From IMG/VR virus record IMGVR_UViG_2660238462_000003: a DNA stretch of 28,867 nucleotides; one strand, 5' to 3'. Of this stretch, positions 1 through 16,861 are shown one piece after another (the first letter of the stretch is position 1; every line of letters starts with the position of its first letter). The notes under the pieces are model-generated. The model saw only the letters and a program-made list of their open reading frames with translations, made no database searches and was not told where the DNA came from. A program made the position numbers and the translations under genes. The stretch is from a virus. Its lineage: Duplodnaviria > Heunggongvirae > Uroviricota > Caudoviricetes.

Positions 1-258
1 ATGGCAATTTATTCTCTTGTTGATGAAAACGATTTGCGCACAATGAAGGACATTGATCGGTTCATTCGTGAAAAAGAGTGCATAGCACTTACCACGCTGG
101 CAAACTCAACACGCTGGAAAATGGAGCAGGCAGGTAAATTCCCGCGACGTATCAAGATCGGTGAACGTGCTGCAGGGTATCGACTTTCAGAGGTTCAGGC
201 ATGGATCCGTGGTGAGTGGCATCCTGGATGGAAACCTGGAAAAACAAAACAGCAATAA
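1..258 (+). CDS. AlpA-family winged-HTH DNA-binding protein (phage regulator / excisionase-like)
   Basis: 85 aa ORF; motif ...KFPRRIKIGERAAGYRLSEVQAWI typical of AlpA/Xis-like HTH; followed by terminator; true start could lie upstream of window or at an internal Met. Confidence 0.7.
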   Translation: MAIYSLVDENDLRTMKDIDRFIREKECIALTTLANSTRWKMEQAGKFPRRIKIGERAAGYRLSEVQAWIRGEWHPGWKPGKTKQQ

Positions 259-270
259 CCAGTAAATAAT

Positions 271-296
271 GCCCCTCATCACGAGGGGTTTTTTGT
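271..296 (+). terminator. Rho-independent terminator after alpA-like gene
   Basis: GC hairpin cccctc-atcac-gagggg (272-288) followed by T-run ttttttg. Confidence 0.55.
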
Positions 297-314
297 CTAT
301 AAGGTAAAAACGCG

Positions 315-893
315 ATGAATAAAAATATTGCCGTGACGGGCAAGGGGTACGCTCGTCCAGTGAAAAAATTCTGCGATATTCGTGATCTCGTCGTTCTGCG
401 CTTTGATAGTGTGAACGTTCGTGTGGTGTATCTGAACGGCGATCCGTGGTTTGTTGCAAAAGATGTTTGTGCTGCGCTGGAACTAACCAATTCGCGTACG
501 GCGTTGCAGATGCTTGATGATGATGAAAAGGGAGTAAATTTAACTTACACCCCAGGAGGAAATCAGAATATGAGAATTATCTCTGAGTCAGGTTTCTACA
601 AACTAATAGCCCGCAGCCGCAAAGCAACGACGCCTGGCACATTTGCTCATCGTTTCAGTAACTGGGTATTCAGAAATGTGATACCAGGTATCAGAAAAAC
701 GGGGACTTATGGTATCCCGTGGGGTGCATTACAGGATTTTTCCCGCCGTAAAGAGCAATATCAAATAAGTGCCAGCGAGAAGGGGAGGGAGCTACAGGCA
801 TGTAAGCGCAAAAAGCGTGAGCTGGAGGAAGAAGAAAAAACGCTGATACGTGAATATCAGCCTGAGTTTTACTTTGGTAACCGCATTCAGTGA
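315..893 (+). CDS. BRO-N domain protein (phage antirepressor-like) with charged coiled-coil C-terminus
   Basis: 192 aa; N-terminal ...FVAKDVCAALELTNSRTALQMLDDDEKG...SESGFYKLIARSRKA... resembles BRO-N/KilA-N family; C-terminal KRKKRELEEEEK. Confidence 0.6.
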   Translation: MNKNIAVTGKGYARPVKKFCDIRDLVVLRFDSVNVRVVYLNGDPWFVAKDVCAALELTNSRTALQMLDDDEKGVNLTYTPGGNQNMRIISESGFYKLIARSRKATTPGTFAHRFSNWVFRNVIPGIRKTGTYGIPWGALQDFSRRKEQYQISASEKGRELQACKRKKRELEEEEKTLIREYQPEFYFGNRIQ

Positions 894-902
894 CAAAACA
901 AA

Positions 903-923
903 GGCGACCGCAAAAGGGTCGCC
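903..923. terminator. Stem-loop (possible bidirectional terminator)
   Basis: ggcgacc-gcaaaag-ggtcgcc perfect 7-bp stem just after BRO-N stop; no clean T-run. Confidence 0.35.
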
Positions 924-1226
924 AGTGGGAACAAGGGAAAACAAAAGCATCACCAACAATGCCACATTTGCGGCTGGTGGGCAATGTGATCAGTCAGATT
1001 TGGTTCGTTCCAAGGTTTGCAACGAGAGCTTTTTCCTGTGCTCTTTAAGGAATTTCTCAAGAGCAAACGAACAAGGTGCGAATCTTTCTGATTCATGTTC
1101 ATGCGCTATATTTTTGCGTCGTCTCTTACGAGTTGGTGATGGTGTTTTGGTTGATTCTGTGTCGCTCATGGTGCTGTCCTGTAAAGCAATGCGCCTGCGT
1201 TCCTCAAACTATGGCGCTGATATTGG

Positions 1227-1532
1227 CTATTCATGCTCTTTGACCTTGCGTCGCTGGAGTTCTTCACGCGCGACGGTGACGAGTTGCCCGATCTCCTCGG
1301 CTGCTTTGATGCCGATTTGTTCGACCTTAGCCAGGGCATCCAGTGACGACACAAGGGGATTTTCTCCGCTGCCTTCTGCTTGGCGGCGGGCTATTTCTCC
1401 GCGCATGGCGGTTACGATAAATCCGGCATTGCTTTCACCGTCCAGCTTAACGGATTCCATCCCTTGCATAACATCTAGTGGGACTCTGACAGTTGTCAGT
1501 TGTGATTTTGCGTTTTTGTTAGCCGTTGCCAT
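1227..1532 (-). CDS. Small ribbon-helix-helix-like / DUF3950-like putative regulator (candidate island repressor)
   Basis: 101 aa; strong SD (AGGAG) 8 nt upstream; N-terminal TTVRVPLDVMQGMESVK...GFIVTAMRGEI looks like beta-strand + helix RHH; divergent from the replication operon. Confidence 0.5.
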   Translation of the reverse strand: MATANKNAKSQLTTVRVPLDVMQGMESVKLDGESNAGFIVTAMRGEIARRQAEGSGENPLVSSLDALAKVEQIGIKAAEEIGQLVTVAREELQRRKVKEHE

Positions 1533-1593
1533 TTCTGAAACTCCTAATCATCGGTGTGTTTCAGTATACACAAAAAAAGAAATACAAAAAGCC

Positions 1594-1630
1594 TTGACGT
1601 GTGTTTCATGCGCTCATAACATGAAACACA
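1594..1630. promoter_or_regulatory. Promoter-like TTGACG with overlapping perfect 10-bp inverted repeat operator
   Basis: TTGACG at 1594-1599; gtgtttcatg (1601-1610) and catgaaacac (1620-1629) are exact reverse complements separated by 9 bp; sits in the divergent region between the 1227..1532(-) gene and the 1913(+) operon. Confidence 0.4.
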
Positions 1631-1912
1631 CCGAAAGGATTGTTGAAATACAAAGAGCAACGCCCCGCAGTGCTGGGAACACATACGGGGCGTCTAACCA
1701 ACAACGTAAACTAGGAGCCGTTATGGTTGCTGTAAATCATATACCACACCTTGTACACACACAAACGGCCTTTGTGTGGCGTTTTCTGGCACTGAGTGCC
1801 GGAGAATCTCAAATCATCCACGTAACCGCCTGGACGGAACGCGAAGCGCGTAGCCGTTGCCCGTCCGGTTGTGTTGCTGTATTCGCTGCAAAAATCCGCC
1901 AGGGAGTGAGTC

Positions 1913-2098
1913 ATGCTTAAAACCTTCCGTGTATTTGCCCGAGCTGTTAACCCAATAGGCCACACAATTGGTATCGCTCAGAATGTGAAGGCTGTTAATG
2001 TTCAGACGGCTATTGCTGCGGTGAGAAGCGAATCATCAGAATATGGCTTATCACAAGTCATTATTTCAGCAGTGTATGAATTAAAAGAGGTGCATTAA
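1913..2098 (+). CDS. Hypothetical small protein (61 aa), first gene of replication operon
   Basis: SD GGGAG upstream; stop overlaps next start (TAATG). Confidence 0.4.
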   Translation: MLKTFRVFARAVNPIGHTIGIAQNVKAVNVQTAIAAVRSESSEYGLSQVIISAVYELKEVH

Positions 2099-2289
2099 TG
2101 CAGGAAATTACATTACACGAAGCCGCTGAACGTGCGCACCAGACAGAAATTATTTGCCGCCTTCTTGAGGTATACCCGAACAAAATTACAGATGCTGATA
2201 TATCCGCACTGGCGAGCCTACTGGCGCGTCTTTCGGGAAGTGTCGCTAGTTTTTTGATTGAGGAAGAAAGTAAGCTGGTGGGGGATTAA
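2098..2289 (+). CDS. Hypothetical small protein (63 aa)
   Basis: Translationally coupled in operon; no recognisable motif. Confidence 0.4.
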   Translation: MQEITLHEAAERAHQTEIICRLLEVYPNKITDADISALASLLARLSGSVASFLIEEESKLVGD

Positions 2290-2511
2290 ATGAATACAGA
2301 ACGGGAAGTCTTTTTTAAATTGTTAGCATGTGCAGAAAGTTCATTAACTTTAAATAATTCAGCAAAAGCAATATTAAATATGTGGCTTGATTGCATAAAT
2401 GACAATGAAGATGCAAATATTGCTTATGGCCTGTTGTCACTTATTGATGAATCAGCAGAAAAACTCAATGACGCAATAAATAGTGCCCTGCTATCAAATA
2501 AGTCGAGTTAA
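2290..2511 (+). CDS. Hypothetical small protein (73 aa), AT-rich codon usage
   Basis: SD GGGGGA upstream; composition markedly more AT-rich than neighbours. Confidence 0.4.
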   Translation: MNTEREVFFKLLACAESSLTLNNSAKAILNMWLDCINDNEDANIAYGLLSLIDESAEKLNDAINSALLSNKSS

Positions 2512-2528
2512 GTCGAGGAATAAATAAT

Positions 2529-2828
2529 ATGGAAATGAAAAATTCTGGCTTTATTGCCAGCGGCCCCGCTCGACCTGAATTTATGAACGGCGATATTTAC
2601 CGCGATAAATACGGCGGCACGGTAACGATTAAAGGCGTGGCAGAACGGCGCATCACTTACCGCCGTGAGGGGTATAGCTATGACTGCGTGATGCCTGTTT
2701 ATCAGTTCCGGCGTGATTTTCCCCTGGTATATGCCGCACCCCGCAGTAAGCCCATCAGCAGGGAAAAAGCGTGGGGAAATATCCAGAAAATGAAAACCAT
2801 GATTAACGGATTCAGAGGTAAAAAATGA
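2529..2828 (+). CDS. Hypothetical protein (99 aa) translationally coupled to primase
   Basis: SD AGGAA upstream; stop overlaps primase start (ATGA). Confidence 0.45.
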   Translation: MEMKNSGFIASGPARPEFMNGDIYRDKYGGTVTIKGVAERRITYRREGYSYDCVMPVYQFRRDFPLVYAAPRSKPISREKAWGNIQKMKTMINGFRGKK

Positions 2829-4579
2829 AACTGGCACCGAACGTAAAACAGCAGTCACGCGGCATAAAACACAAAGGAACAGAAGTCATTATTTTTGCGG
2901 GTAGTGATGCCTGGGCACACGCGAAACAATGGCAGGAACATGATGCGCGTATGGCCGGAGATAATGAGCCTCCTGTGTGGCTTGGGGAGCAGCAGCTATC
3001 CGAACTGGATAATCTGCAAATTGTGCCGGAAGGCCGAAAATCAGCACGCATATACAGGGCCGGATATCTTGCGCCTGTAATGATAAAGGCGATTGGTCAG
3101 AAGCTGGCGGCAGCAGGCGTACAGGATGCAAATTTTTATCCTGAGGGTATGCACGGCCAGGAGGTGCAGAACTGGCGCGAATATCTGGCCCGTGAACGCC
3201 AGAATCTTTCTGATGGTCTGGTCATTGAGCTTCCGGTAAAGCAAAAGGCGCAACTTTCGCAGATGGCGGACAGTGAGCGCGCGCAGTTGCTTGCCGATCG
3301 CTTTGATGGCGTTTGCGTACATCCTGAAAGTGAAATCGTTCACGTATGGCGCGGCGGGGTATGGTGTCCGGTCAGCACAATGGAACTTAGCCGCGAAATG
3401 GTGGCGATCTATTCAGAGCACAGGGCCACTTTCAGCAAGCGCGTAATCAATAACGCCGTGGAAGCGTTAAAAGTTATTGCCGAACCAATGGGCGAGCCGT
3501 CTGGCGATTTGCTGCCGTTCGCCAATGGTGCGCTTGACCTGAAAACGGGGGAATTTTCCCCGCACACGCCGGAGAACTGGATCACCACGCACAACGGCAT
3601 TGAGTACACGCCACCAGCACCAGGGGAGAACATCCGCGATAACGCGCCAAACTTTCATAAATGGCTTGAGCACGCAGCCGGAAAAGACCCGCGCAAGATG
3701 ATGCGTATATGTGCCGCGCTGTACATGATTATGGCGAACCGGTACGACTGGCAGATGTTTATTGAGGCCACCGGAGACGGCGGGAGCGGTAAAAGTACAT
3801 TCACACACATAGCCAGCCTTCTGGCAGGGAAACAGAACACGGTAAGCGCTGAAATGACATCGCTTGATGATGCTGGTGGACGTGCGCAGGTTGTCGGGAG
3901 TCGTCTTATCGTCCTGGCTGACCAGCCGAAATATACAGGCGAAGGAACGGGCATCAAGAAAATCACAGGCGGCGACCCCGTGGAAATTAACCCGAAATAT
4001 GAAAAGCGTTTCACGGCGGTAATCAGGGCGGTGGTGCTGGCGACCAACAACAACCCGATGATATTCACCGAACGGGCCGGAGGTGTGGCACGTCGTCGCG
4101 TGATTTTCCGTTTCGACAATATCGTCAGTGAGGCCGAAAAAGACAGGGAGCTACCGGAAAAGATTGCGGCTGAAATCCCCGTTATTATCCGCCGATTGCT
4201 GGCGAACTTTACCGACCCTGAGAAGGCACGGGCTTTACTACTGGAACAGCGTGACGGTGATGAAGCACTGGCAATAAAGCAACAGACGGATCCGGTTATT
4301 GAGTTTTGCCAGTTCCTGAATTTTCTGGAGGAAGCGCGCGGCCTGATGATGGGTGGCGGTGGTGATTCAGTGAAGTACACGACCAGGAACAGCCTTTACC
4401 GCGTCTATCTGGCGTTTATGGCATACGCGGGCAGGAGCAAACCGCTAAACGTGGCTGAGTTCAGCAAGGCCATGAAGCCAGCGGCGAAAGTTTACGGGCA
4501 TGAATATATTACGCGAAAAGTTAAGGGAGTAACGCAGACCAACGCAATTACAACAGACGATTGCGACGCGTTTTTATAA
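2825..4579 (+). CDS. P4-family / D5-type primase-helicase (satellite replication protein)
   Basis: 584 aa; Walker A GDGGSGKST and surrounding D5_N/primase-C-like architecture; followed directly by iteron array. Confidence 0.85.
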   Translation: MKLAPNVKQQSRGIKHKGTEVIIFAGSDAWAHAKQWQEHDARMAGDNEPPVWLGEQQLSELDNLQIVPEGRKSARIYRAGYLAPVMIKAIGQKLAAAGVQDANFYPEGMHGQEVQNWREYLARERQNLSDGLVIELPVKQKAQLSQMADSERAQLLADRFDGVCVHPESEIVHVWRGGVWCPVSTMELSREMVAIYSEHRATFSKRVINNAVEALKVIAEPMGEPSGDLLPFANGALDLKTGEFSPHTPENWITTHNGIEYTPPAPGENIRDNAPNFHKWLEHAAGKDPRKMMRICAALYMIMANRYDWQMFIEATGDGGSGKSTFTHIASLLAGKQNTVSAEMTSLDDAGGRAQVVGSRLIVLADQPKYTGEGTGIKKITGGDPVEINPKYEKRFTAVIRAVVLATNNNPMIFTERAGGVARRRVIFRFDNIVSEAEKDRELPEKIAAEIPVIIRRLLANFTDPEKARALLLEQRDGDEALAIKQQTDPVIEFCQFLNFLEEARGLMMGGGGDSVKYTTRNSLYRVYLAFMAYAGRSKPLNVAEFSKAMKPAAKVYGHEYITRKVKGVTQTNAITTDDCDAFL

Positions 4580-4589
4580 TTTTTTGTAA

Positions 4590-4815
4590 AAGCCATCTAC
4601 CCCATCTACCTGAACAAAATAAACGCATATTATTCAACATGATAAGTGGGTATAGGGCTAGGTAGAAGGCTAATAAAAGCTCTCTACCTCTTCTACCTGA
4701 TTTTATCAGTTTCAGGTAGCAGGGTAGACGGCAGGTAGAGGAGTCAAAAAGCTATCTACCCGCTGAAAGCCGCGCCATTACTGACATGATGAGCATTCGG
4801 GTAGATGGGTAGAGG
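4590..4815. repeat. Iteron array, putative satellite replication origin
   Basis: At least 11 copies of (A/T)CTACC / GGTAG(A/T) core in both orientations (e.g. catctaccccatctacctga, ctctacctcttctacctga, tcaggtagcagggtagacggcaggtagagg, gggtagatgggtagagg); AT-rich flank; immediately 3' of primase. Confidence 0.6.
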
Positions 4816-4864
4816 GGGGGAGGCACAACTAAAAACTTTTTAAACGAGGGGGGGGTGAAAATAA

Positions 4865-5179
4865 ATGCGCATACATAAAAATCACTTAATAAACATGCCA
4901 GCCGAAAACATGAATCAGGGGCGACAAATGACCAAAATTCGCAGAGACAGAACACAGGCAAAATATAAAGCGTTAGACATGACAGAGCTTTCCTTAAAGG
5001 TGGCAATCAAAGCGATAGACCACCACACACGGGCAGGATACGCGAAGGAACATCCCGACCTGATAAGCGCATTCATGACCACAGCAGCGGCAAACTTTGC
5101 CACGCTGACAGAACGGGAGATTGCCGAAGCGGAACAGGTGACAACCATCAATGTTAAAACCGGAGAGCAGACAGCATGA
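4865..5179 (+). CDS. Hypothetical protein (104 aa; alternative start at 4919)
   Basis: ORF with stop overlapping SSB start; purine-rich SD-like sequence upstream of both candidate starts; G8 tract immediately upstream. Confidence 0.4.
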   Translation: MRIHKNHLINMPAENMNQGRQMTKIRRDRTQAKYKALDMTELSLKVAIKAIDHHTRAGYAKEHPDLISAFMTTAAANFATLTEREIAEAEQVTTINVKTGEQTA

Positions 5180-5625
5180 CAGCACAGATAGCGGCTTACG
5201 GGCGGCTGGTGGCTGACCCGCAGTTAAAGACCACCAGCAAAGGGACACAAATGGCGATGGCGAGTATGGCGGTTCCCCTGCCGTGCAGCCAGGCAGATGA
5301 CGGAACGGCGACGATGTGGTTATCCGTCCTGGCGTTTGGCAGACAGGCCGACGCACTGGCAAAACACCACAAAGGCGAACTGGTGAGCGTGGCGGGTAAC
5401 ATGCAGGTAAGCCAGTGGACAGGCCAGAACGGCGAAACGCGGCGGGGCTGGCAGGTTATCGCAGACAGCGTAATCAGTGCGCGAACGGCGCGACCGGGCG
5501 GCAAAAAAGGCCAACAGGGGCAGGCTACTGACGAACTGAACAGAGCAAAACAACAGGCAGATCAGCAAGGAAGCCAGCCACCAGTGGGAGATAATGAGCA
5601 ATGGGGAGATGATATCCCGTTTTAA
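5176..5625 (+). CDS. Single-stranded DNA-binding protein (SSB-like, divergent)
   Basis: 149 aa; OB-fold-like N-terminus alignable to E. coli SSB, Q/G-rich linker, C-terminal acidic tail ending DDIPF. Confidence 0.75.
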   Translation: MTAQIAAYGRLVADPQLKTTSKGTQMAMASMAVPLPCSQADDGTATMWLSVLAFGRQADALAKHHKGELVSVAGNMQVSQWTGQNGETRRGWQVIADSVISARTARPGGKKGQQGQATDELNRAKQQADQQGSQPPVGDNEQWGDDIPF

Positions 5626-5642
5626 ATATTGCCAATAAAAAA

Positions 5643-5667
5643 GGCCGGAAAAAATAAATTTTCCGGC
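5643..5667 (+). terminator. Stem-loop between ssb-like and capsid genes (possible attenuator)
   Basis: ggccggaaaa-aataaa-ttttccggc inverted repeat; no T-run. Confidence 0.3.
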
Positions 5668-5841
5668 ATGCTACATAAATCCCGACCAAAGGGAGTGAAG
5701 ATATTAACACTAATTGTCCGCACTGAAGTTGTCACCCCAAAACTTTATACAACATTGCACTCGGTTGCATGTGTTCGCATGACAAATATCGGTGGTAGCA
5801 TATATCCACAATTATTTTTAATGAATGCAAAGAGGATGCGT

Positions 5842-6882
5842 ATGGTTGATTTATATTCGCCTACTCAGCTTGTACAGGTGGTTAATGCTGTAGATGTACA
5901 AAAACAACTAAATGCGTTGTTTACCAGTTTGTTTTTTACTCGCTCGGTAATGTTTGAATCGCGCGATATTATTCTTGATACAATCGACGATCCAAATATC
6001 CCAATTGCAGCGTTTTGTTCTCCTATGGTGGGTAGTAAAGTTTCACGTGACGAAGGGTACGAATCAAAAACAATTCGTCCAGGCTATATGAAGCCGAAAA
6101 GCAGCATTGATCCAAATAAGTTAGCTGTGCGCCCTGCTGGTGTATCACCTGAGCAATACAATGCTTTTGGGGCACGTAATATTAAAGTTAAACAGGCGAT
6201 TGTAAATCAGGCTAAAGCTATTCGTGCACGTATTGAATGGCTTGCTGTTCAGGCAATCACAACGGGGAAAAATATCATTGAGGGCGATGGTATTGAACGT
6301 TATGAGCTGGACTGGAATATAAAACCACAAAATATCATCACTCAGTCTGGCGGTACTGAGTGGTCAGGTAAGGATAAAGAAACTTTTGATCCAAATGATG
6401 ATATTGAGAGCTACGCAGAATTTAGTGAGGGCGTCACTAATATCATCATTATGGGTGGTAATGTATGGAAGAAATACCGTTCATTCAGAGCGATAAAAGA
6501 GGCTTTGGATACCCGTCGTGGTTCTAATTCCGAACTGGAAACGGCCCTTAAAGACCTTGGTGATTCGGTGAGTTTTAAAGGGTATATGGGCGATGTTGCG
6601 ATTGTTGTTTACAGCGGGCGTTATACCGACGAGGACGGAACAGAAAAACATTTCCTTGATCCTGATTTGATGGTGCTTGGCAATACGGCTCTTCAGGGGA
6701 TTGTCGCCTATGGCGGTATTCAGGATCCGGAGCTAATCCGAATGGGGCTGACTAAAGCCGAACTTGCACCGAAAAACTATATTGTGCCTGGTGATCCGGC
6801 TATTGAATATGTGCAGACACATTCAGCACCACAGCCAATACCGGCCCGCATCAATCGTTTTGTTACCGTTCGCATTGGCTAA
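5842..6882 (+). CDS. Major capsid protein, lambda gpE family
   Basis: Shared blocks with lambda gpE as recalled: NITQSGGTEWS, DTRRGSNSELETA, GDVAIVVYSG, MVLGNT, PGY.KPK; start chosen at ATG 5842 (SD GAGG 6 nt upstream; ORF opens at 5629); about 347 aa vs 341 for gpE. Confidence 0.85.
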   Translation: MVDLYSPTQLVQVVNAVDVQKQLNALFTSLFFTRSVMFESRDIILDTIDDPNIPIAAFCSPMVGSKVSRDEGYESKTIRPGYMKPKSSIDPNKLAVRPAGVSPEQYNAFGARNIKVKQAIVNQAKAIRARIEWLAVQAITTGKNIIEGDGIERYELDWNIKPQNIITQSGGTEWSGKDKETFDPNDDIESYAEFSEGVTNIIIMGGNVWKKYRSFRAIKEALDTRRGSNSELETALKDLGDSVSFKGYMGDVAIVVYSGRYTDEDGTEKHFLDPDLMVLGNTALQGIVAYGGIQDPELIRMGLTKAELAPKNYIVPGDPAIEYVQTHSAPQPIPARINRFVTVRIG

Positions 6883-6891
6883 GGGGGAGCA

Positions 6892-7233
6892 ATGGCTACT
6901 CATTACACTGAACTCATGGCTGGCACTGAAGCACTGGTGACTACGCTGGGGATATTTTCAGCTAATAAAGGGGTAATTCCTGCATTTACGCCACTGATGC
7001 AGGAAGATGCAACAGGTGCACTGGTGGTATGGGATGGTTCGAGCGTAGGTAAAGCGGTTTATGTTTCCGCTGTACAAATCGACACAGCGAAAAAAACACA
7101 GGCACAGGTTTATAAGACAGGTGTTTTAAATGTTGATGCTCTGAACTGGCCTGAGTCTGTAAAAGAACTGTCGGCAAAGGTTGCCGCGTTTGTTGGCTCA
7201 GGTATTTCTGTTCAGCCGCTGGCTCGTGTGTAA
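6892..7233 (+). CDS. Head decoration protein, lambda gpD family
   Basis: 113 aa; PAFTPLMQEDATGALVVWDGSSVGKAV and WPE...AFVGSGISV align with lambda gpD; strong SD AAGGGGGAG. Confidence 0.7.
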   Translation: MATHYTELMAGTEALVTTLGIFSANKGVIPAFTPLMQEDATGALVVWDGSSVGKAVYVSAVQIDTAKKTQAQVYKTGVLNVDALNWPESVKELSAKVAAFVGSGISVQPLARV

Positions 7234-7244
7234 AGGGGGATACA

Positions 7245-7628
7245 ATGCAGAATCATTACAATGACCTTAAGCCAATTGCCGAAATGATGTATCCGGATCC
7301 AGCAGTAGAGGAATTAAAGGCTATTGCTGACAAAATGCGTTTAAGTGAACGCCTTGTTGATATGAATCAGGTGATGGAACTTACTACCCTTAGCCGTCGC
7401 ACATTGCTAAACCTTGAGGCTAGTGGAGAGTTCCCGGAGCGTGTGCAGGTTACGGAAGGGCGTAAGGCCTGGTATTTAAGTGAAGTGATCGACTGGATAA
7501 ACAATATTCCTCGATCTTCTGAATATTGCCGCGTACCTGTCCCAAAAAAGCCAGATGCGGCGCTATGCCTCAAGATTGAGCGTGTACGTCGCAATGCACG
7601 GGATGGTCGCTATAAGTTGATTGGTTGA
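7245..7628 (+). CDS. AlpA-like winged-HTH DNA-binding protein (second copy) immediately upstream of cos
   Basis: 127 aa; MNQVMELTTLSRRTLLNLEASGEFPERVQV...AWYLSEVIDWI matches AlpA/Xis-like HTH; strong SD AAGGGGGA. Confidence 0.6.
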   Translation: MQNHYNDLKPIAEMMYPDPAVEELKAIADKMRLSERLVDMNQVMELTTLSRRTLLNLEASGEFPERVQVTEGRKAWYLSEVIDWINNIPRSSEYCRVPVPKKPDAALCLKIERVRRNARDGRYKLIG

Positions 7629-7650
7629 TGAAATTAGGGCCCGTTCTGGC

Positions 7651-7830
7651 TGGCGGGTCCTTTCCGGCGATCCGGTAGGCTACGGGGCGGCGACCTCGCG
7701 GGTTTTCGCTATTTATGAGCCTTTTTCGGGTGCTGGTGGTGGTTTTGTTGTTCGCTCTATCTCTATGAATAAAAAGGAAAAGATAAAGCCAATACACCAA
7801 CCTGAAACATTACTTAAGTGGGGATATTGA
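7651..7830 (+). other. Lambda-type cos site (cosQ - cosN - cosB)
   Basis: 7685-7696 GGGCGGCGACCT equals the lambda cohesive end; following CGCGGGTTTTCGCTATTTATGA matches the lambda left end; preceding GGGTCCTTTCCGGCGATCCGGTAGGCTACG closely matches the lambda right end (cosQ); downstream cosB region diverges. Confidence 0.8.
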
Positions 7831-8300
7831 TGAAATCGCACCTGATGAACAAAAAAAACATGGCGCAAAGCTGCCGTGTAAGTGCGACAGCGTTCGACAA
7901 GTGGGGAGTGACTCCCGTTGAACGTAAAGGCCGCGAGGCGTTTTATGATGTTGCCAGCGTAATAGACAATCGGGTTAGCAATGCAATTAACCAGATTACA
8001 GACGACAAAGGCGAGATTGATGATGATGAACTCCTACGAGTCAGGATCAGATTGCTGACAGCACAGGCAGAGGCGCAGGAGCTTAAAAACGAGCGCGAAC
8101 GCGGCGACGTTATTGATACAGCGTTTTGTATATACGTGCTTTCAAAATTGGCGAGTCAGATTTCTTCAATCATGGACAGCCTGCCGCTTGCCATGACAAG
8201 GAAGTTTCCCGACATGAAGCCGTCTATGCTGGATGGACTGAAAAAGAAGTTATCAGAGCCTGTAACGCATGCGCAAAACTTGACGAAAACATACCGCTGA
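7830..8300 (+). CDS. Terminase small subunit, lambda Nu1 family (in-frame part; C-terminal domain continues in -1 frame to 8371)
   Basis: RLLTAQAEAQELKNERERGDVIDTAFCIYVLSKLASQISSIMDSLPLAMTRKFPDMK aligns with lambda Nu1; SD GGGGA 5 nt before ATG 7830; -1 frame 8246-8371 encodes EVIRACNACAKLDENIPLMLSDYLMETAG matching the Nu1 C-terminus. Confidence 0.8.
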   Translation: MKSHLMNKKNMAQSCRVSATAFDKWGVTPVERKGREAFYDVASVIDNRVSNAINQITDDKGEIDDDELLRVRIRLLTAQAEAQELKNERERGDVIDTAFCIYVLSKLASQISSIMDSLPLAMTRKFPDMKPSMLDGLKKKLSEPVTHAQNLTKTYR

Positions 8301-8382
8301 TGCTGTCCGATTATCTGATGGAAACTGCCGGAAACGTACCGGATAAGTTGCAGCCGAATAAAGATAAGTAACGTAGTACGCT

Positions 8383-8664
8383 ATGACTGAATCCGAAATA
8401 CTGCGATTAATCCGCCGTGCTTGTGGAATCAGCAAGCAGCATGACGAACAGGCCACGCAGCCGGACAGCGTGACCGCAGATAATTATGTGCGTGTAGTGG
8501 CTGAGGTGATGCGCCGTGACGGTATTGAGCTTAACGGCGTGGATATGCGCAACATACGAACAAGAGTCCTTGAGTTGCTGGCATATCGTCGCCGTTCTCA
8601 ACAACGGAGGGAGAGCGCGAAAAATACTTACCAGTGGAAGAAGCCGGAACGATTGCGGCGGTAA
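8383..8664 (+). CDS. Hypothetical basic protein (93 aa)
   Basis: ORF directly after terS; Arg-rich C-terminus; weak SD; no recognisable family. Confidence 0.35.
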   Translation: MTESEILRLIRRACGISKQHDEQATQPDSVTADNYVRVVAEVMRRDGIELNGVDMRNIRTRVLELLAYRRRSQQRRESAKNTYQWKKPERLRR

Positions 8665-8679
8665 CTTGCTGATATTCCC

Positions 8680-9060
8680 GATAACGCAAAATTGCGCTGG
8701 CTGACTTGTTGCATTGCAAAAAGTTAAGCAGGAAGGCACGGCCTGTAAGATGGGATGCAGTAAGTAGTTCAAGGCTACCTTGTGCTGGCACGCACAGTTA
8801 AGCCGTCGGTGCTGGATATCCCCCACTGGGGGAAAAGCTGGCTACATCCCTCACATCTGAGGACTGATAACGCGACATTGCGCTGGCTGGCAAAGTGCAA
8901 AATTGCACGATGGCCTAACCCATTGATTATTTCGAAAACCTGCAATGCAGGAAATCGGGGAAGTAAGCCTAAGCTATTGATTGTTTCGAAAACCCCCATT
9001 GGGGGATGTCGGGAAAGTAAGACTAACCCATTGATTCTTCCACAATCCTCAATTTGAGGA
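8680..9060. repeat. Non-coding region of short palindromes and degenerate direct repeats
   Basis: Direct repeat gataacgc(a/g)a(a/c)attgcgctggctg at 8680 and 8866; palindromes cgcaaaattgcg, ttgcattgcaa, cccccactggggg, gtgcaaaattgcac, cctgcaatgcagg, cccccattggggg, cctcaatttgagg; three roughly 55-bp units each starting (c/t)cattgatt(n)tt(t/c)c. Confidence 0.5.
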
Positions 9061-9479
9061 GGCCGGAACGTCTACATAGCTGCATCGCCGTAATGATGAT
9101 TCAGCCCACCAGCCAAATCAGCACAGCAACGACAGAATAGCCCGACACAGAAAAACCACGAATATGGGGTTTTTGTTATGACATGGTCATGATGACCACT
9201 CATACAAAACAGGTAAAGCCCACCAGCCTGATTAAAGGTTAACCGGAAAAAAGCCAGGTATCCAATCTCGATATGGGGATCCCTATATCGACATTAACGC
9301 CCACTAAAACTGTGCATATATGCATAGAAAAAGCATCCACCAGCTTTATGACGGATGCCGCTCATCTTATAAATAATCGTGTATTGCAGTGTGTATTGCG
9401 ACTCCTTTAAACGATAGGTCTGAGCATTCGTAATGTACTGTTTTTAAATTTTATTTTTTCCTGTCTTTTCATAAAGGCG

Positions 9480-9707
9480 ATGTATGCCGCCACCATTGAG
9501 AGTGAGCTGGATACGCAGTCAGCGATGGATTTTATTCTGGGCGCGAACAGTCAGGAGCAGCGGGAAAGGCTGACCGGCTGGATTGGTGAAATTGCCGCGT
9601 ATTACGCCGCAGCGCCGGTCCGGCTGGGAGGCGCAAAAGTACCGCACCTGATGCCGGGGGACTCACTGAACCTGCAGACGGCTCAGGACACGGATAACGG
9701 CTACTCC
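9480..9707 (+). CDS. Hypothetical protein, 3' end lost in scaffold gap
   Basis: ORF MYAATIESELDTQSAMDFILG... running into the N-run; unrecognised. Confidence 0.25.
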
Positions 9708-9717
9708 NNNNNNNNNN
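9708..9717. other. Assembly/scaffold gap (10 N)
   Basis: Run of 10 n characters. Confidence 0.95.
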
Positions 9718-9921
9718 CGCAGCTTTACGCTTGTCTTCTCTTATTTTGAAGTACAGATTCGTCAGGTAAGTCAGAAAGCCCAGAACCAGACTTCCCAGCA
9801 CACCAATAGCAGCCCACTGTGATGGACTGACCTGATCAAGCCACTGTAAAAACCAGTAGCCAGCACTGCCTGCGGAGGTGCCGTAGGCAATGCCCGTTGT
9901 TAACTTGTCCATGGATTTCAT
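9718..9921 (-). CDS. Holin, phage 21 S21 (pinholin)-like; C-terminus truncated by gap
   Basis: [63 protein letters not shown]... matches S21/EssD-type holin; strong SD GGAGGTGAGG. Confidence 0.8.
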
Positions 9922-10294
9922 AGCCTCACCTCCGCAAATAACGGATGGTGTACACGGTTCGGAACGAAGAGGGAAAGGTATAGAAGTTACATTAGCGTAA
10001 GGCCTGAACATCTATTCAAAAAGAAAAACGCCAGCGATTATTCTGGCGTAGCTGAAAGCATCATAAAATTATCAAATACGAAAATTACAAAATCATTAAA
10101 ACGCATCACGTTACATCATGTGTTTTTCTAAAAAAATCTTGATGAATATTTGTGGGGAGGAACACCAAAATATCTTCTGAAAACACTTACAAAATATGAC
10201 GTATTTTCATAACCGCATATCTCAGCAACTTTCCCAACAGAATATAAATTGTAGCTTAATAACCTTTCCGCCATCACCATTCGCTCTTCAAGAA

Positions 10295-10680
10295 TTAATT
10301 TTCGTGGATCTCAACTGAGCGTGAGAAGCAGATTGTTTTACGAGCCAACCGCTTAATACGGGTGCGTAGCGTCAGATTATTACGCTCAATGCGTTGGGTG
10401 AATATTTTGCCGGTCAGATGCTTATTCTTCGGCACCTCCCGGCCATAGCTGCCCCAGTCATCGCTGGTCAGCATGCCGATATTGAAGGGTGTAAGCAGTG
10501 CCAGTAGCTCCCGGCACGTTTGATCGGTTCGGGGACCAAAAGTGTAGGCCAGTACACCGCCTGTTTTGGTGTTGTACGCGTACCAGAGTCAGTGTTGCCG
10601 GGCTTTACTGCCAACGTAGCTCCATTGCTCATCAAGCTCGCAGATAAGCGCCACATCAGCATGGGCAACAGGCGAAGAAG
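10295..10680 (-). pseudogene. insB: IS1 insB-like, internal TGA stop and short C-terminus
   Basis: Minus-strand translation LICELDEQWSYVGSKARQH*LWYAYN...MLTSDDWGSYGREVPK...RIERNNLTLRTRIKRLARKTICFSRSVEIHEN resembles InsB; stop falls where IS1 InsB has Trp. Confidence 0.6.
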
Positions 10681-10953
10681 TTATTCGCTTTGGCGCGAGT
10701 TTTTTAAAGTCCGGATGACGGTGTTAATACCAATTTTCAGTGTCCTGGCGGTATCGCGAACCCCGGCACCATTAAAGGCCATTTCAGTTATCCGCTCTTT
10801 CATACCCGGCTTACGTGCTTGATAAGTATAAGTGAGCTGAAACACACGGTGGCAGTCACGGCAGCGAAATCTGTCACGGCCTTTAGGGTTCTGACCATGG
10901 CGGTAAACCTGAGCTGACTGACAACGGGGACAATGAATATTAACTCTGGCCAT
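10681..10953 (-). CDS. insA: IS1 InsA-like zinc-finger/HTH protein
   Basis: 90 aa; CPRCQS...CRDCHRVFQ zinc finger and HTH GINTVIRTLKN typical of IS1 InsA (divergent from K-12 IS1). Confidence 0.8.
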   Translation of the reverse strand: MARVNIHCPRCQSAQVYRHGQNPKGRDRFRCRDCHRVFQLTYTYQARKPGMKERITEMAFNGAGVRDTARTLKIGINTVIRTLKNSRQSE

Positions 10954-11432
10954 GAGATAACCTCAAAAGCCCGTATTATACATCAGACTCAACTAATTAG
11001 AGGCATCACCATAGAACATATGTATGGCATATTATCCACCTGATATCATTGGGGTTACACCAGGTAAGTATAGGTGGGTAATCAATATTCGCCAGTTCAA
11101 CAATAAGGAAAATCTCATTGCATCACAACTATAAAAGCATGTGTTTAACTCGCAAAAAATCATTAAACTAATCTGTTATATTATAATAGCTGCGTGCAAT
11201 AATAATATTATATGCTCTTAATATTCGCTTGAAATATCTTTATATAAAAACAGATTGAATAAAATATTTTGGGGCTGGTATATTTACCAACATTAAATTG
11301 CATCTCAATATTTTCTTCAGCGTGAACAGGATTTTTATACAAACTGACACTATGGGTATCATAGTGTAGTTTTTACGATTGTAAATATCCTGCATGCAGG
11401 AACTCATCACTTTCAGATGATATCGCATACAG

Positions 11433-12392
11433 TTAATTCACCATCAGTCTTAAAGCCAGTTCTTCCGGATAGGGATCGAAGTAATTCTGTGTAAGCAAGT
11501 AATCATTAGGATACTCACCCAGATAATGCTTCAGCAGAGTCAACGGCGCAAGAAGAGGCAATGTGCCAGAACGATAGTTAAGTATAACCTCGCTCAACTC
11601 TTTACGCTGGCGTGTACTTAAGTAGTTACTAAAATACCCCTGTATATGCATCAGCACATTCGTGTGATTTTTACGTGATGCAGGTTTTATGAGAATCGCC
11701 ATCAGCTTATCACGATACACCTCAAAGAATGATTCAAGGTCCGCCCACTCGTGTATTGCAGCCACAAATGGTCCCATATCTTTATAGCCTGCCTGACTAT
11801 GCGCCAACAACTGAAGCTTATAACGACTATGAAAAGCTAATAACTCTCTTCTTGATAATTTCTCCTTGTAAAGGTGATTGAGCTCATGCAAAGCAAAAAC
11901 TCTTTCAACAAAATTCTCACGAAGCACTGGATCATGTAATCGCCCATCCTCTTCAACCGGTAGCCAAGAAAACTTTTCCATCAAAGTGCTCGTAAATAGT
12001 CCCACTCCATCTTTACGACCTCGATTACCATTTTCATCATAGACACGCACGCGCTCCATGCCACAGCTGGGAGATTTAGCACAAACCACAAACCCCGATA
12101 CATCCTTTAATTTGTCCATATAAGAACGACTAAACTCTGTCATTCTCTCTGTCACATCCTCATTCTGGTCGTGGCTGAAACACATCCGTATATTTCCTTG
12201 CGTCGAGCGCACAAGACGTAGAGCAGGACGCGGAACTGGCAGCCCTATAGCCATTTCCGGACATACTGGTCTGAATGTTACCCATTCCACTAATTTGTCC
12301 ATTAAAAAGTCAGCTCTTTTGTGACCACCATCAAAACGAACAGCAGAACCGGCCAAACAACCGCTGATTCCAATCACAGGTTTTTTTATCAT
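11433..12392 (-). CDS. DUF523/DUF1722 (YbgA-like) family protein
   Basis: 319 aa; strong SD GGGGGAGGA; N-terminal Cys-containing DUF523-like region plus C-terminal DUF1722-like region (from memory of family features). Confidence 0.55.
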   Translation of the reverse strand: MIKKPVIGISGCLAGSAVRFDGGHKRADFLMDKLVEWVTFRPVCPEMAIGLPVPRPALRLVRSTQGNIRMCFSHDQNEDVTERMTEFSRSYMDKLKDVSGFVVCAKSPSCGMERVRVYDENGNRGRKDGVGLFTSTLMEKFSWLPVEEDGRLHDPVLRENFVERVFALHELNHLYKEKLSRRELLAFHSRYKLQLLAHSQAGYKDMGPFVAAIHEWADLESFFEVYRDKLMAILIKPASRKNHTNVLMHIQGYFSNYLSTRQRKELSEVILNYRSGTLPLLAPLTLLKHYLGEYPNDYLLTQNYFDPYPEELALRLMVN

Positions 12393-12584
12393 ATCCTCCC
12401 CCTTGACTAATTCATTAACAGATAAACTGTGTAGTGCACGGAATAAATTGCCTTTCTGGCGTCATCACTGACAATTTTTCTGTTATGGACTATTCCTAAT
12501 ATAGTATAAAAGTTCTTTAAGTGATTGGTCGTAATCATCTATCTTTCATACTTACCCTCAACTATCAAAAGTACAGGATTTATT

Positions 12585-13109
12585 ATGAAGTTATGGCCTG
12601 TGTTGACTGGCATTGCACTCTCTTTCACTCTTATAGCATGTAAGGCCCCGACACCACCTAAAGGTGTGCAGCCGATTACAAATTTTGACGCCAACCGCTA
12701 TCTCGGAAAATGGTATGAAATAGCTCGCCTCGAGAACCGGTTCGAACGTGGTCTGGAACAGGTCAGCGCTACTTATGGAAAACGGAACGACGGAGGGATT
12801 CGTGTACTTAACCGTGGATACGATCCAACGAAAAATAAATGGAGCGAGAGCGAAGGTAAAGCATACTTTACTGGAGATACTAAAACTGCAGCGTTGAAGG
12901 TTTCGTTTTTTGGCCCCTTCTATGGTGGCTATAATGTAATCAAACTGGATGATGAGTATAAGTATGCTCTTGTCAGTGGTCCGAACAGAGAATACCTATG
13001 GATTCTGGCAAGGACCCCAACTATTCCAGATAAAGTAAAAGCAGACTATGTGCGAACCGCTCAAAAGCTGGGATTCAATGTCAATGAATTATTATGGGTT
13101 AAACAATAA
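12585..13109 (+). CDS. blc: Outer membrane lipoprotein Blc (bacterial lipocalin)
   Basis: Lipobox LIAC; NFDANRYLGKWYEIARLENRFERGLE...KVSFFGPFYGGYNVI...YLWILARTPTI closely matches E. coli Blc; SD AGGA 6 nt upstream. Confidence 0.85.
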   Translation: MKLWPVLTGIALSFTLIACKAPTPPKGVQPITNFDANRYLGKWYEIARLENRFERGLEQVSATYGKRNDGGIRVLNRGYDPTKNKWSESEGKAYFTGDTKTAALKVSFFGPFYGGYNVIKLDDEYKYALVSGPNREYLWILARTPTIPDKVKADYVRTAQKLGFNVNELLWVKQ

Positions 13110-13136
13110 AATCCCTACCCGAAATGATACTTATTA

Positions 13137-13165
13137 GAAAAAAAACCAGCCTTTGGGGAGGCTGG
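13137..13165 (-). terminator. Rho-independent terminator downstream of Q (tR'-like)
   Basis: On minus strand ccagcctccccaaaggctgg hairpin followed by T8. Confidence 0.5.
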
Positions 13166-13265
13166 CTAAATCAGGAAACAAGCTGTTATATGATAATAAC
13201 TACGTTGCGATTCCAACATTTAAAATGTTAGACTAATGACAATCAGACAGCAACTTTTCTTTTAA

Positions 13266-13643
13266 TTATTTCGAACAATCAGCATCCATCTCCAATCGGA
13301 GATCCAACACCATCAGCATGCCCTCCACTACGCCCTCAGCTTTCTGGAGCATCCTGCCAACCCAACAATCAGATCGCCCATGCTTACGTGCAAGCGCCAT
13401 AAAAGTCATGCCGCCGACATAATAGTCCACCAATAAATCATGCAAATCGCTGTTGTTTTTTTTCAGGCGAGCCATACATCCACAAATGATCATCGCGTCA
13501 TCGTCACAGCATTGCGGGCGAGATTTGACTTTTGAAGAAATTAACCCCTTAAAACCGGCAGCAATGGACGACCAGGTCACATCTTCATGATTATTAGCCG
13601 CCCACGCTCCCCAACGCTCAAGAACCATCTGAATATCACGCAT
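13266..13643 (-). CDS. quuD: Late-gene antiterminator Q (DLP12 QuuD-like)
   Basis: [31 protein letters not shown]...[16 protein letters not shown] matches QuuD/Q82-family; ORF opens at 13658 but start chosen at 13643. Confidence 0.8.
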
Positions 13644-13728
13644 CAACTTACTCCACAAAAATCAGACCAGAACGCCAATTACAAGCAAAAATCAACAAAA
13701 CAGTATTAGTTGATTGTTATCTCTGACT

Positions 13729-13869
13729 TCATACTCCTGCTCCTGTCAGGGTTTTGGCGTAATTCTTCAGTATTCGGTAATCGGTCAAAACAGAACCGGG
13801 GAAACGATATAAGCGCAGACGCCCCCAGCGGTGGCGAAGACGTTCTGCCATATAAAACTCAAACATCAT
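13729..13869 (-). CDS. ylcG: YlcG-like small protein (46 aa)
   Basis: Minus-strand [49 protein letters not shown] between rusA and Q; not in supplied ORF track (under size cut-off). Confidence 0.45.
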
Positions 13870-14228
13870 TCATTCCCCATTTCGGTGATGGTCAGTTCCA
13901 GCCTCCCACCTTTGGTAACAGGCATCTTCACAACGCGGTAATCAACGACCTGAGCATCATCCAGCCAGAAACCTGCTTTAGTGAGTGCGTCAAAAGCGGC
14001 TTTTTGCAGATTATCCAGGTCACGGCGACGGCGATCCGGCATGTGGCACTCAATGCGGATTTTCACAGGCATAGCCAGGCCGATATCCAGCATTGCGTTT
14101 TTAATGATTCGGGCGACGTTATCGCGGTATGCCTGCCCCTCTGCGCTGACGTGCGTGCGCCCGCGATTATGGCGGTAATAGCGATTATTGCTCGGAGGCC
14201 AGGGTAATGTGATGCTGTAGGTATTCAC
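13866..14228 (-). CDS. rusA: Holliday junction resolvase RusA
   Basis: 120 aa [41 protein letters not shown]... matches E. coli RusA as recalled. Confidence 0.9.
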
Positions 14229-14515
14229 GCCTTAATAACCCCCTCTTTCAGCCAGATAACCTGTGTTCTCGCCATACCTTCCAGCGCGCATTCTTTTGCA
14301 TATGCAGCATCGACAAAATGTGTGCGGCGGTCGATTTCGTCGTGGCAGGCAGAACATGCAATGGTGGCAATCAGGTCTGGCGGTTTGGTACCGGTGCCGC
14401 ACAATCCAGTCAGCCGGATATGTGCCAGTACAGACGTTTCAGGGTTGCCATTACATACGCCAGGGATTCTTACCTGGCATTCCCGACTACGCGCTGCTTT
14501 TCTCAAATCAGCCAT
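14225..14515 (-). CDS. ybcO: YbcO-like (DUF1364) nin-region protein
   Basis: [40 protein letters not shown]...[11 protein letters not shown]; start at 14515 with SD AGGAGGAA. Confidence 0.75.
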
Positions 14516-14678
14516 GATTCCTCCTTGCTGCCAGTCGCAACCATTTTTTATCAACCAGGCTGGCGGTATATCCGAGCAGTGTTGGTATTTCGGAAGGCTT
14601 CAGCTCCGGTTTACGCTTACGACGATCTGGTACTCTGTAGATGTGTCCGTTCATGACACGAATAAGCGGTGTAGCCAT
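14508..14678 (-). CDS. ninE: NinE-family protein (56 aa)
   Basis: Minus-strand [59 protein letters not shown]; start overlaps ybcN stop (TAATG); under ORF-track size cut-off. Confidence 0.5.
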   Translation of the reverse strand: MATPLIRVMNGHIYRVPDRRKRKPELKPSEIPTLLGYTASLVDKKWLRLAARRNHG

Positions 14679-15133
14679 TACGCCTCCTGCTTGTCGCGGA
14701 GCAGCTGGAACTCGCAGCTCTGCGGAATAGTCAGGTGGCAGCCAATATTCACCGCCCAGGCTTCAACCTTACACAGGAAGACATACATCTCTCCGGTATC
14801 AAGATCGGAGGTATGGCGTAACGACTGGATAGTGGTGATATCACCGGTTACGACATCAACCAGGTCTTTGGTTTCATAACCGAGATATGTGTGTTTGAGA
14901 GCATCTTTTACCCAAGCTGGAGTGGCGAACGTTTTACCCTTGCTGATGAGGTATTCACTGATTTCGCTGTACCACATGTGGCTGAGTGCATTCTGGGAAA
15001 GACTGCGTCTCTCGCGCCACGGTTTAAGCACCATGCGAAAGCATTTGCCGTCCTCCAGATAAGGCTGGATCTGCCGACCGATAGCGGTGAAGTTACCGCG
15101 ATGCAATTTGATACCATCTTGTGGGAGGTTCAC
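14678..15133 (-). CDS. ybcN: YbcN-like nin-region protein
   Basis: 151 aa ORF resembling DLP12 YbcN; position upstream of ninE-ybcO-rusA. Confidence 0.75.
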
Positions 15134-15408
15134 GCTTCACCTCCGCAGAGGTCAAACGTTGGATGCAAGATATCGCAGGTGCATTTCTGCATCTGTGACT
15201 GGTTGAAAGGTGTTCTGATTGTCGTTTGCACTTTGAGTCCCCTCAAAGCGCAGAAGTCACCGGAGTTGTTCAGGCTCCGATGACATGATTATGGCGAGTT
15301 GATTATGATGAATCAATAGGTTCTTATGTCAAATGAACACTAGATCCAAAGGAGGGTAACAATTATCATAGCCAATGAGATTAATCTCATTTTTAATAAG
15401 GAAATTTC

Positions 15409-16827: not shown

Positions 16828-16835
16828 TAAATTTC

Positions 16836-16861
16836 AATAGCACTCACAAATGAGTGCTATT
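16836..16861. terminator. Hairpin between convergent moron genes
   Basis: aatagcactca-caaa-tgagtgctatt perfect 11-bp stem. Confidence 0.4.

Follow-up and report, generated by a model that had tools for sequence, protein, structure and literature searches.

How is the DNA of a satellite packaged when its packaging site begins as that of phage lambda does and then departs from it? The question is raised by IMG/VR record IMGVR_UViG_2660238462_000003 (Duplodnaviria; Heunggongvirae; Uroviricota; Caudoviricetes), a stretch of 28,867 nucleotides that is here called the window. Positions 7640-7830 are, judging from their sequence, the cos site of an E. coli phage-inducible chromosomal island (PICI) of about 10.8 kb and of the Gram-negative type, and the gene that follows directly encodes a small terminase subunit (TerS). 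An earlier note on this DNA proposed that the island keeps the cosQ and cosN of a helper and combines them with a TerS-cosB specificity of its own, by which packaging is diverted. Our comparisons suggest that the site is probably modular in much this way, with a helper-type cosQ and cosN reaching to bp 34, a satellite-specific cosB at bp 35-145, and an island TerS that would redirect the large terminase subunit (TerL) of the helper. Base pairs in cos are counted from the start of the cohesive end throughout.

A lambda-type cos core

The core comprises the following features.

7655-7661, plus strand: cosQ heptamer GGGTCCT, 30 bp upstream of the top-strand nick, in sequence and spacing as lambda 48473-48479
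7680-7701, plus strand: cosN core, 21/22 identical to lambda cosN
7685-7696, plus strand: cohesive-end 12-mer GGGCGGCGACCT, part of the cosN core
7685-7718, plus strand: lambda-identical 34 nt, made up of the cohesive end and CGCGGGTTTTCGCTATTTATGA, by alignment to lambda bp 1-34

The earlier note had stated that cosN and the next 22 nt match the left end of lambda, and that the segment upstream is close to the right end. Both statements hold. When aligned to the ends of NC_001416, 7685-7718 is identical to lambda bp 1-34 at 34/34 positions, and 27 of the 31 nt at 7654-7684 match the lambda right end, among them GGGTCCT at the same 30-bp spacing. This heptamer we take to be cosQ, following the work of the Feiss laboratory. 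The likeness is far beyond chance, and the lambda-like nature of the core is confirmed. When 7600-7860 was compared by blastn with 50,697 phage records, matches were confined to 7653-7730 (E 9e-20 to 6e-22), and downstream of about bp 46 no DNA-level similarity to any of these records was detected. The exact cosN 12-mer occurs in a single copy in the whole window. Among 14 aligned satellite cos sites the cosQ heptamer is invariant; the cohesive-end 12-mer is variable within the satellite clade (GGGCGTCAGGCG, GGGCGGCAGACG and GGGCGTCGACCT are found) while cosB stays constant.

Candidate recognition elements in cosB

From bp 35 onwards the identity with lambda is lost (about 42-45% ungapped beyond this point), and the lambda R motif CGTTTCC does not occur in 7719-7829, so that the downstream cosB is indeed unlike that of lambda. 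In this region an R3-like element comes first, followed after an A/T-rich spacer by an inverted R2-like element that is about 55 bp away from it, and TerS begins at bp 146.

7735-7752, plus strand: R3-like element GGTGGTGGTTTTGTTGTT, bp 51-68, positioned as N15 R3
7753-7789, plus strand: A/T-rich spacer between the R-like elements, in which the 14-site alignment shows partial conservation of a TATCT..ATGAWT block
7790-7806, minus strand: inverted R2-like element, top strand CAATACACCAACCTGAA, bp 106-122, the reverse complement of which contains GGTTGGTGTAT

Equivalents of the lambda sites, which have the order R3-I1-R2-R1, could be mapped in part. The R3-like and inverted R2-like elements are present in another sequence type, and no R1 was found in the island cosB. 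The spacer is a possible bend site, but no clear site for integration host factor (IHF) emerged, the best candidate for the IHF consensus at 7753-7789, checked by eye, having 3 mismatches.

Both elements resemble those of N15-type phages. In N15, R3 (GGTTGTTGTTT) lies at bp 50-60, with an inverted copy with one mismatch at bp 248, and linker scanning placed R3 within bp 48-60 (PMC9026076, where the work of Feiss et al. 2015 on N15 gp1 and the cosB R3 is summarised). The GGTTGGTGTAT of the R2-like element is one base off the inverted R2 GGTTGTTGTAT (bp 108) of L019, a Monarch-like Escherichia prophage, and the element shares place and orientation with that R2 and with lambda R2 (bp ~110). N15- and Monarch-like prophages are therefore like the island in having a related R motif, an R3 equally far from cosN and, in the Monarch-like ones, an R3 combined with an inverted R2. 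They differ from it in that their TerS genes precede TerL, which the island gene does not; moreover, the cohesive end of the island is that of lambda, whereas that of N15 is GGGCGGCGTCCG, and the island motif differs from the N15 motif by fixed T-to-G changes in both elements. On these comparisons the island cosB is best regarded as derived from the N15-type R motif, which was already known, in a form specific to satellites, and not as an unrelated sequence.

Conservation among satellites falls on the same elements. The 14 divergent satellite cos sites that we aligned come from E. coli, Enterobacter-type and Superficieibacter loci, with TerS identities down to 53%, and their conservation is centred on cosQ, cosN, CGCTATTTATGA, the R3-like and the R2-like element, while the intervening bases drift. 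Every satellite cos site, be it from E. coli, Enterobacter or Superficieibacter, has kept the R3-like element, and the flanks of this element vary. An inverted TTTTGTTGTTC at bp 163-173, inside TerS, was considered as an N15-like remote rR2 and rejected, being a low-complexity A-run that encodes the family-wide N-K-K motif. A promoter and terminator scan of 7200-8800 gave nothing beyond the shuffle expectation.

TerS and its pairing with cosB

TerS loci were collected from one genome per species, IMG/VR viral contigs, exact-protein look-ups and complete E. coli genomes, and the TerS/cosB pairs were tallied in the roughly 90 loci that had enough flanking DNA. Grouped by TerS identity to the island protein, these loci show the following.

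TerS at least 55% identical: cosB GGTGGTGGT(T/G)TTGTT in 35/35; adjacent TerL in 0/35
TerS 43-54% identical: N15-type GGTTGTTGTT in 26/26; adjacent TerL in 25/26
TerS less than 43% identical: N15-type in 14, lambda-type CGTTTCCGTTCTTCTT in 12, neither in 2; adjacent TerL in 25/28

The satellite TerS type and the cosB type co-vary, and the pair is restricted to satellites: among the loci tallied, no phage-context locus carries it, and the satellite-type cosB was seen in 0 of 52 TerS loci below 55% identity, 50 of which have TerL next to them. A large-subunit gene is adjacent in 0/35 loci of the satellite TerS clade versus 50/54 in the phage clades, and this lack of a neighbouring TerL marks the gene as a satellite gene. 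In the group with at least 55% identity an E-like capsid gene usually lies upstream. The (GGT)3 change in the motif has become fixed in the satellites (35/35) and was seen in none of the N15-type phage loci (0/40).

In the window the gene and its remainder are arranged as follows.

7830-8300, plus strand: satellite TerS gene of the Nu1/N15 family, 156 aa here, Pfam PF07471
8241-8245, plus strand: A5 run (A6 in the relatives L001 and L002), a 1-nt deletion with frameshift
8246-8371, plus strand: out-of-frame TerS remainder with ...LDENIPLMLSDYLMETAG..., matching the TerL-binding end of Nu1

The protein matches Phage_Nu1 (PF07471) with 77.9 bits in the window form and 85.8 bits in the intact form (cut-off 30), and phrog_57 by profile (E 5e-51). 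A Nu1-like TerS thus follows cos at 7830, as had been read from the sequence, but it is nearer to N15 gp1 than to Nu1 and its open reading frame (ORF) is shifted. The intact protein, of 180 aa in L001 and L002, is 38% identical to Nu1 over the whole length and 47.6% identical to N15 gp1, its best match among phage records. Its N-terminus aligns to the DNA-binding domains of both N15 and Nu1; the recognition-helix motif AFDKWGV is the same as in N15 and unlike lambda, and the short wing PVERKGRE resembles N15 PVEKRGRE rather than lambda. At the other end, the segment ...LDENIPLMLSDYLMETAG... aligns with LDELIPGLLSEYIEQSG of Nu1, and the C-terminal LDENIPLMLSDYL parallels LDELIPGLLSEYI. The last ~40 aa of Nu1-family TerS have been described as the TerL-binding domain (Murialdo & Feiss, PMC9026076). 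A search of the intact sequence against the PDB (E<=10) returned chance matches alone, with no match to an RppC chain; the solved Nu1 and Rpp fragments span the divergent N-terminus only.

Satellite TerS is under purifying selection, with a median pairwise ratio of nonsynonymous to synonymous substitution (dN/dS) of 0.17 for the whole gene, 0.08 for the DNA-binding domain and 0.25 for the last 40 residues. The ORF is intact in 65/66 sampled related loci, the window copy being the lone exception. Since its A run counts five instead of six, the product has 156 aa and the C-terminal segment is out of frame, by which residues ~141-180 are lost; as sequenced, this copy is predicted to be unable to recruit TerL through TerS. 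Among the complete E. coli genomes with this terS the A5 allele occurs in 0/56 and the exact A6 version in 51/56. The exact 156-aa product is indexed in 61 collection blocks, and the eight places listed are all NCBI drafts of one accession series. The A5 run may be a lineage-specific mutation or a systematic homopolymer error, and a sequencing error is possible because the allele is absent from 56/56 complete genomes. Other TerS lineages (P0078, P0082/P0085) have undergone the same frameshift in the A run, and further shortened TerS variants are found in the protein database (P0088, P0091, P0092, P0097 and P0113). It is a speculative thought that recurrent A6-run frameshifts yield Rpp-like tail-less TerS.

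The cos site of the embedding prophage

This island clade inserts into the portal gene of lambda-like prophages. In 5/5 complete genomes examined (APEC O2-211, JNE23-011, CFSAN018748, EC93 and STEC313) the island lies inside the portal gene and is co-oriented with it, and in L001, L002, L170, L171 and L172 the gene is split, with fragments on both sides of the island. In all five the embedding prophage has a textbook lambda R3/R2/R1 cosB with Nu1 and TerL. Between the island cos and that of the embedding prophage, 28-31 of 33 positions agree at -33..-1 and 29-34 of 34 at bp 1-34 (33-34/34 in L001, L002, L171 and L172), and beyond this the identity is 41-45%. A cosB equal to that of the resident helper would have meant no switch of specificity; it was found in none of the five. 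As the island cosB is not that of the resident helper-like phage, simple recombinational capture is unsupported, and capture of a helper cos-Nu1 block was rejected for the mismatch of both cosB and TerS with the embedding prophage.

The composite of prophage and island has two co-oriented cos sites about 12.8 kb apart (894 and 13657 in L001, and likewise in L002 and L170-172). Without excision of the island, a functional cosQ/cosN would sit within the packaging path of the helper. In CFSAN018748 (L170 1725 vs 14490) the cohesive-end 12-mer of the prophage is GGGCGGAAGGCG and that of the island GGGCGGCGACCT; judged by these 12-mers, helper and island would have different sticky ends.

Relation to Rpp islands and other satellites

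EcCICFT073, a PICI of the Rpp type, is like the window island in its gene order (int-alpA-...-pri-SSB-MCP-Dec-small ORF-cos-gene-orf93, where MCP is the major capsid protein and Dec the decoration protein), in a cosQ and cosN like those of lambda, beyond which (from about bp 35-42) the sequence diverges, and in a specificity gene directly after cos. The genes are collinear, with detectable nucleotide similarity in the late half only. The specificity gene itself is different, as EcCICFT073 has rppA at the position of the island terS: the one gene is an Rpp, the other a Nu1/N15-family TerS with a tail in its full form, and no BLASTP alignment between TerS and RppA was obtained at E<=100. Rpp proteins have 135-153 aa and no TerL-binding tail (PMC9026076). 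They require the TerS of the helper, which a complete TerS would in principle not. The two islands differ in cosB as well, with GGTGGTGGTTTTGTTGTT in the window island and ..GTGACACCACCACCAC.. in EcCICFT073 cos1, where the repeat has the opposite orientation. EcCICFT073 cos1 (L173 8960-9741) has CACCACCACCAC at about bp 54-65, which is GGTGGTGGT in inverse complement, a sequence that stands at bp 51-59 in TerS-type islands, and the triplet repeat thus stands at the same distance from cosN, in opposite orientation, in the two kinds of island.

The exchange can be followed in L084, a TerS-type island at the same phoQ attachment (att) site as EcCICFT073. As far as bp 42 of cos1 the two have 94% identity; across cosB and the specificity gene they are not related, and homology (90%) resumes about 150 bp past the gene and continues through the 93-aa ORF. 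Hence cosB and the specificity gene behave as one exchangeable cassette. A second, inverted cos lies to the right of the cassette in EcCICFT073 (L173 ~9677-9741), EcCIIHE3034 (L174 ~10078, minus strand) and L084 (3186-3259); in these three the cosB plus rpp or terS cassette stands between inverted cosQ-cosN cores, and the window island has no second cos.

EcCIIHE3034 has a TerS 79% identical to that of the window island and the same cosB type, so the island family is already catalogued, Fillol-Salom 2018 (PMC6092414) having listed EcCIIHE3034 as one of two E. coli PICIs that are 'TerS-encoding'. EcCIIHE3034 and EcCI18098 are unlike the window island in their att site, cspD-clpS, and in the second inverted cos downstream of TerS. 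The principle of packaging redirection has likewise been published for Rpp-type PICIs (Fillol-Salom 2018, PMC6092414; Fillol-Salom 2019, PMC6739421; Murialdo & Feiss 2022, PMC9026076). The helper-embedded PICIs (Tommasini, Mageeney & Williams 2023, PMC10111431) resemble the window island, which sits in portal gene B, in that they lie within a late gene of lambda and in its orientation; their model element 11capE lacks terS and its 258-bp cos region is 90% identical to the helper, whereas the window island shares about 67 bp of cos with the embedding prophage and has a cosB and a TerS of its own. We found no analysis of cosB/TerS specificity in the EcCIIHE3034 family in the literature searched.

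SaPI1 and SaPIbov1 have Gram-positive hosts, headful pac packaging and a TerS of an unrelated family. They are alike in principle, an island small terminase and a helper large terminase directing packaging to the island site (summarised in PMC6092414).

A proposed route of packaging and its alternatives

Dimers of the island TerS would bind the R3-like and R2-like elements through an N15-type winged-helix domain, and the Nu1-like C-terminus of TerS would dock a helper TerL of the gpA type. This TerL would nick the lambda-type cosN of the island and package island concatemers, with termination at the conserved cosQ/cosN of the next unit. The Nu1 of the helper would use the island cosB poorly, because lambda R sites are missing there. 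Such poor use is also to be expected because a non-lambda cosB lowers lambda- and phi80-mediated transfer of cos plasmids (PMC6739421), and because lambda cannot package N15 DNA, while N15 packages lambda DNA (PMC9026076). DNA binding, recruitment of TerL and diversion of packaging are steps that we infer from sequence.

Several points weigh against this route. It is built on sequence comparison, and the compatibility of the TerS C-terminus with a lambda-type gpA is assumed from a similarity of about 45-50%. The TerS of the window copy is frameshifted. The AlphaFold2 model of TerS is poor (pLDDT, the predicted local distance difference test score, 61), with a strand-helix-helix-hairpin-helix topology, and its Foldseek match to the Nu1 DNA-binding domain 1j9i is weak (prob 0.93, E 0.4), which falls short of proving the fold. 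The R3-like element has a variable number of GGT units, with a 6-bp difference between the near-identical islands L084 and L085, and some loci (the cos regions of L132 and L144 were examined) have a long G run instead of GGT units, with the GTTGTT part shifted relative to cosN; this is awkward if the spacing from R3 to cosN is as critical as in lambda. Finally, EcCIIHE3034 gave no transfer after mitomycin C induction of the resident prophages in the lone published attempt (PMC6092414). What the earlier note proposed, a helper-type cosQ and cosN with a private TerS-cosB pair, is nevertheless favoured by the mismatch with the prophage cosB in 5/5 genomes, the 35/35 pairing and the cassette swap; it has to be amended in that cosB is N15-derived and TerS is tail-less in this copy.

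The N15-like character of the DNA-binding domain, and R-like elements that are 1-2 bases from the N15/Monarch motif, could also mean that the specificity is shared, the TerS of N15/Monarch-type helpers recognising the GTTGTT cosB of the island and the island TerS being a redundant or boosting copy taken from a phage of this kind. E. coli Monarch-like prophages with identical cosQ/cosN and GGTTGTTGTTT R sites do exist (L019, L020, L153-L167), L144, a locus in satellite context, carries an unmodified GGTTGTTGTTG motif, and the N15 terminase is reported to be permissive, packaging lambda DNA as well (PMC9026076). We consider this reading unlikely, as the 5/5 embedding prophages examined are of lambda type, not N15 type, the TerS is just 44-48% identical to the phage clade with a clean gap between them, and the (GGT)3 of 35/35 satellites is seen in 0/40 N15-type phage loci. 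That the cos-TerS segment is instead a captured piece of a lambdoid late region in decay, with no present role in transfer and a pseudogene in the window copy, would fit the frameshift here, the other shortened variants (P0078, P0082, P0088, P0091, P0092, P0097 and P0113) and the two TerS-encoding E. coli PICIs that were not mobilised in a published attempt (PMC6092414). A remnant of this kind seems very improbable given a dN/dS of 0.17, intact ORFs in 65/66 sampled loci, the intact allele in 51/56 complete genomes, and R3-like and R2-like footprints kept across genera while adjacent bases drift.

The island TerS might also act in the manner of Rpp, by forming mixed dimers with the helper TerS that poison recognition of the helper cosB and retarget the complex to the island cosB, with the helper TerS making the contact to TerL, in which case the 156-aa form would remain active. 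The position of terS fits, being exactly that of rpp after cos, with which it is swapped as a cassette; the frameshifted product has the same tail-less architecture as the Rpp proteins of 135-153 aa (PMC9026076), and the A-run frameshift recurs in P0078 and P0082/P0085. The central region of TerS, moreover, is about 50% identical to that of Nu1. This region is presumably the part of Nu1 that mediates self-association. Set against these points are the absence of detectable similarity to RppA or to the RppC chains in the PDB, a C-terminal tail with a dN/dS of 0.25 that is intact in 65/66 loci, and the A5 allele in 0/56 complete genomes, so that it is possibly a sequencing error; we hold an Rpp-like mode to be highly unlikely. 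Redirection of a helper TerL by a complete island TerS is the reading that we hold to be the most likely.

The island and the assembled window

The right-hand 9.7 kb of the PICI occupy window positions 1-9708, and in the same contigs the integrase is found immediately to the left of what the window covers. Besides the features given above, this part contains the following.

1-4579, plus strand: regulatory and replication part, with alpA 1-258, Bro-N 315-893, small ORFs, DUF4222 and a D5/P4-type primase 2825-4579
5842-6882, plus strand: homologue of the lambda-E-like MCP (PF03864; RefSeq annotation in L001)
6892-7233, plus strand: homologue of the lambda-D-like head decoration protein (PF02924)
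7245-7628, plus strand: AlpA-type helix-turn-helix protein directly upstream of cos (PF05930; phrog_2790)
8383-8664, plus strand: 93-aa ORF after TerS (phrog_1561)
9471-9708, plus strand: 3' part of the portal gene, of lambda type, that the island interrupts, reaching to the end of the island contig (portal fragment annotated in L001, L002 and L170-172; weak Phage_portal_2 match)
9709-9718, no strand: run of ten N in the sequence, a scaffold join

An SSB gene and ylcI-like and icd-like genes are also found in the island. The layout is that of a Gram-negative PICI, a class of about 10-15 kb, with int-alpA, a P4/D5-type pri-rep and few late genes in one orientation, and with no tail or lysis genes. 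It is not that of a capsid-forming PICI (cf-PICI), as an own TerL, portal, protease and head-tail connectors are absent and homologues of the MCP, the decoration protein and TerS alone are present. The 93-aa ORF follows TerS or Rpp in every related island, and one database protein, P0084, is a fusion of it with the first 130 residues of TerS. Near the right end of the island, three tandem 54-nt units, each with a short hairpin of its own (for example CCTGCAATGCAGG and CCCCCATTGGGGG), lie at 8913-9074; an Rfam scan of the whole window gave no match, these units included.

To the right of the join, 9719-28867 is a lambdoid prophage with lysis genes, nin region, P, O, cro, cI, red genes and int, beside ybhC. 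Eight sister draft assemblies contain the same island with different chromosomal neighbours at identical break points. Because of the N10 run at 9709-9718 and these inconsistent neighbours, the abutment of island and prophage is taken as a scaffold join, and a biological rearrangement beside the prophage lysis region was rejected. Since its contig was joined artificially, the prophage at 9719-28867, whose own cos lies outside the window, cannot be assumed to be the helper. Within its ren/nin region, on the opposite strand, a 472-aa ORF (15409-16827, plus strand) matches PADLOC HEC-07 (E 1e-9) and no Pfam family, and is a possible anti-phage cargo gene.

Implications for satellite packaging

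The novelty is modest, as the principle and the island family are known; the recognition elements, the three-way co-variation of TerS and cosB, and the boundaries of the cassette are new. We tentatively suggest, as a proposal that could well prove wrong, that PICIs of E. coli and related enterobacteria have a third, satellite-only class of cos-packaging specificity, consisting of an N15-derived TerS with (GGT)3-type R sites, as an allelic alternative to Rpp with its cosB. Its exchange would take place cassette-wise, with the cosQ-cosN core ahead of it unchanged, and in several islands the cassette would be flanked by two cos cores in inverted orientation. Should the island TerS by itself couple a lambda-type TerL to its cosB, this would be, to our knowledge, the first cos-type hijack by an 'own small terminase' in satellites of Gram-negative bacteria.

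The candidate R sites are concrete and open to test, and the natural TerS/cosB series of lambda, N15 and satellite types can be used to map how the winged-helix domains of the Nu1 family read DNA. The finding also bears on the failed mobilisation of TerS-encoding E. coli PICIs, the silence of which would, if the proposal is true, be explained by wrong helpers in the tests, and on the competition of portal-embedded islands with their helper. Packaging specificity determines which DNA exits the lysing cell, and this locus points to a second and simpler theft of the lambda-type terminase than that by Rpp, in which a complete small terminase would act together with a recognition site of its own.

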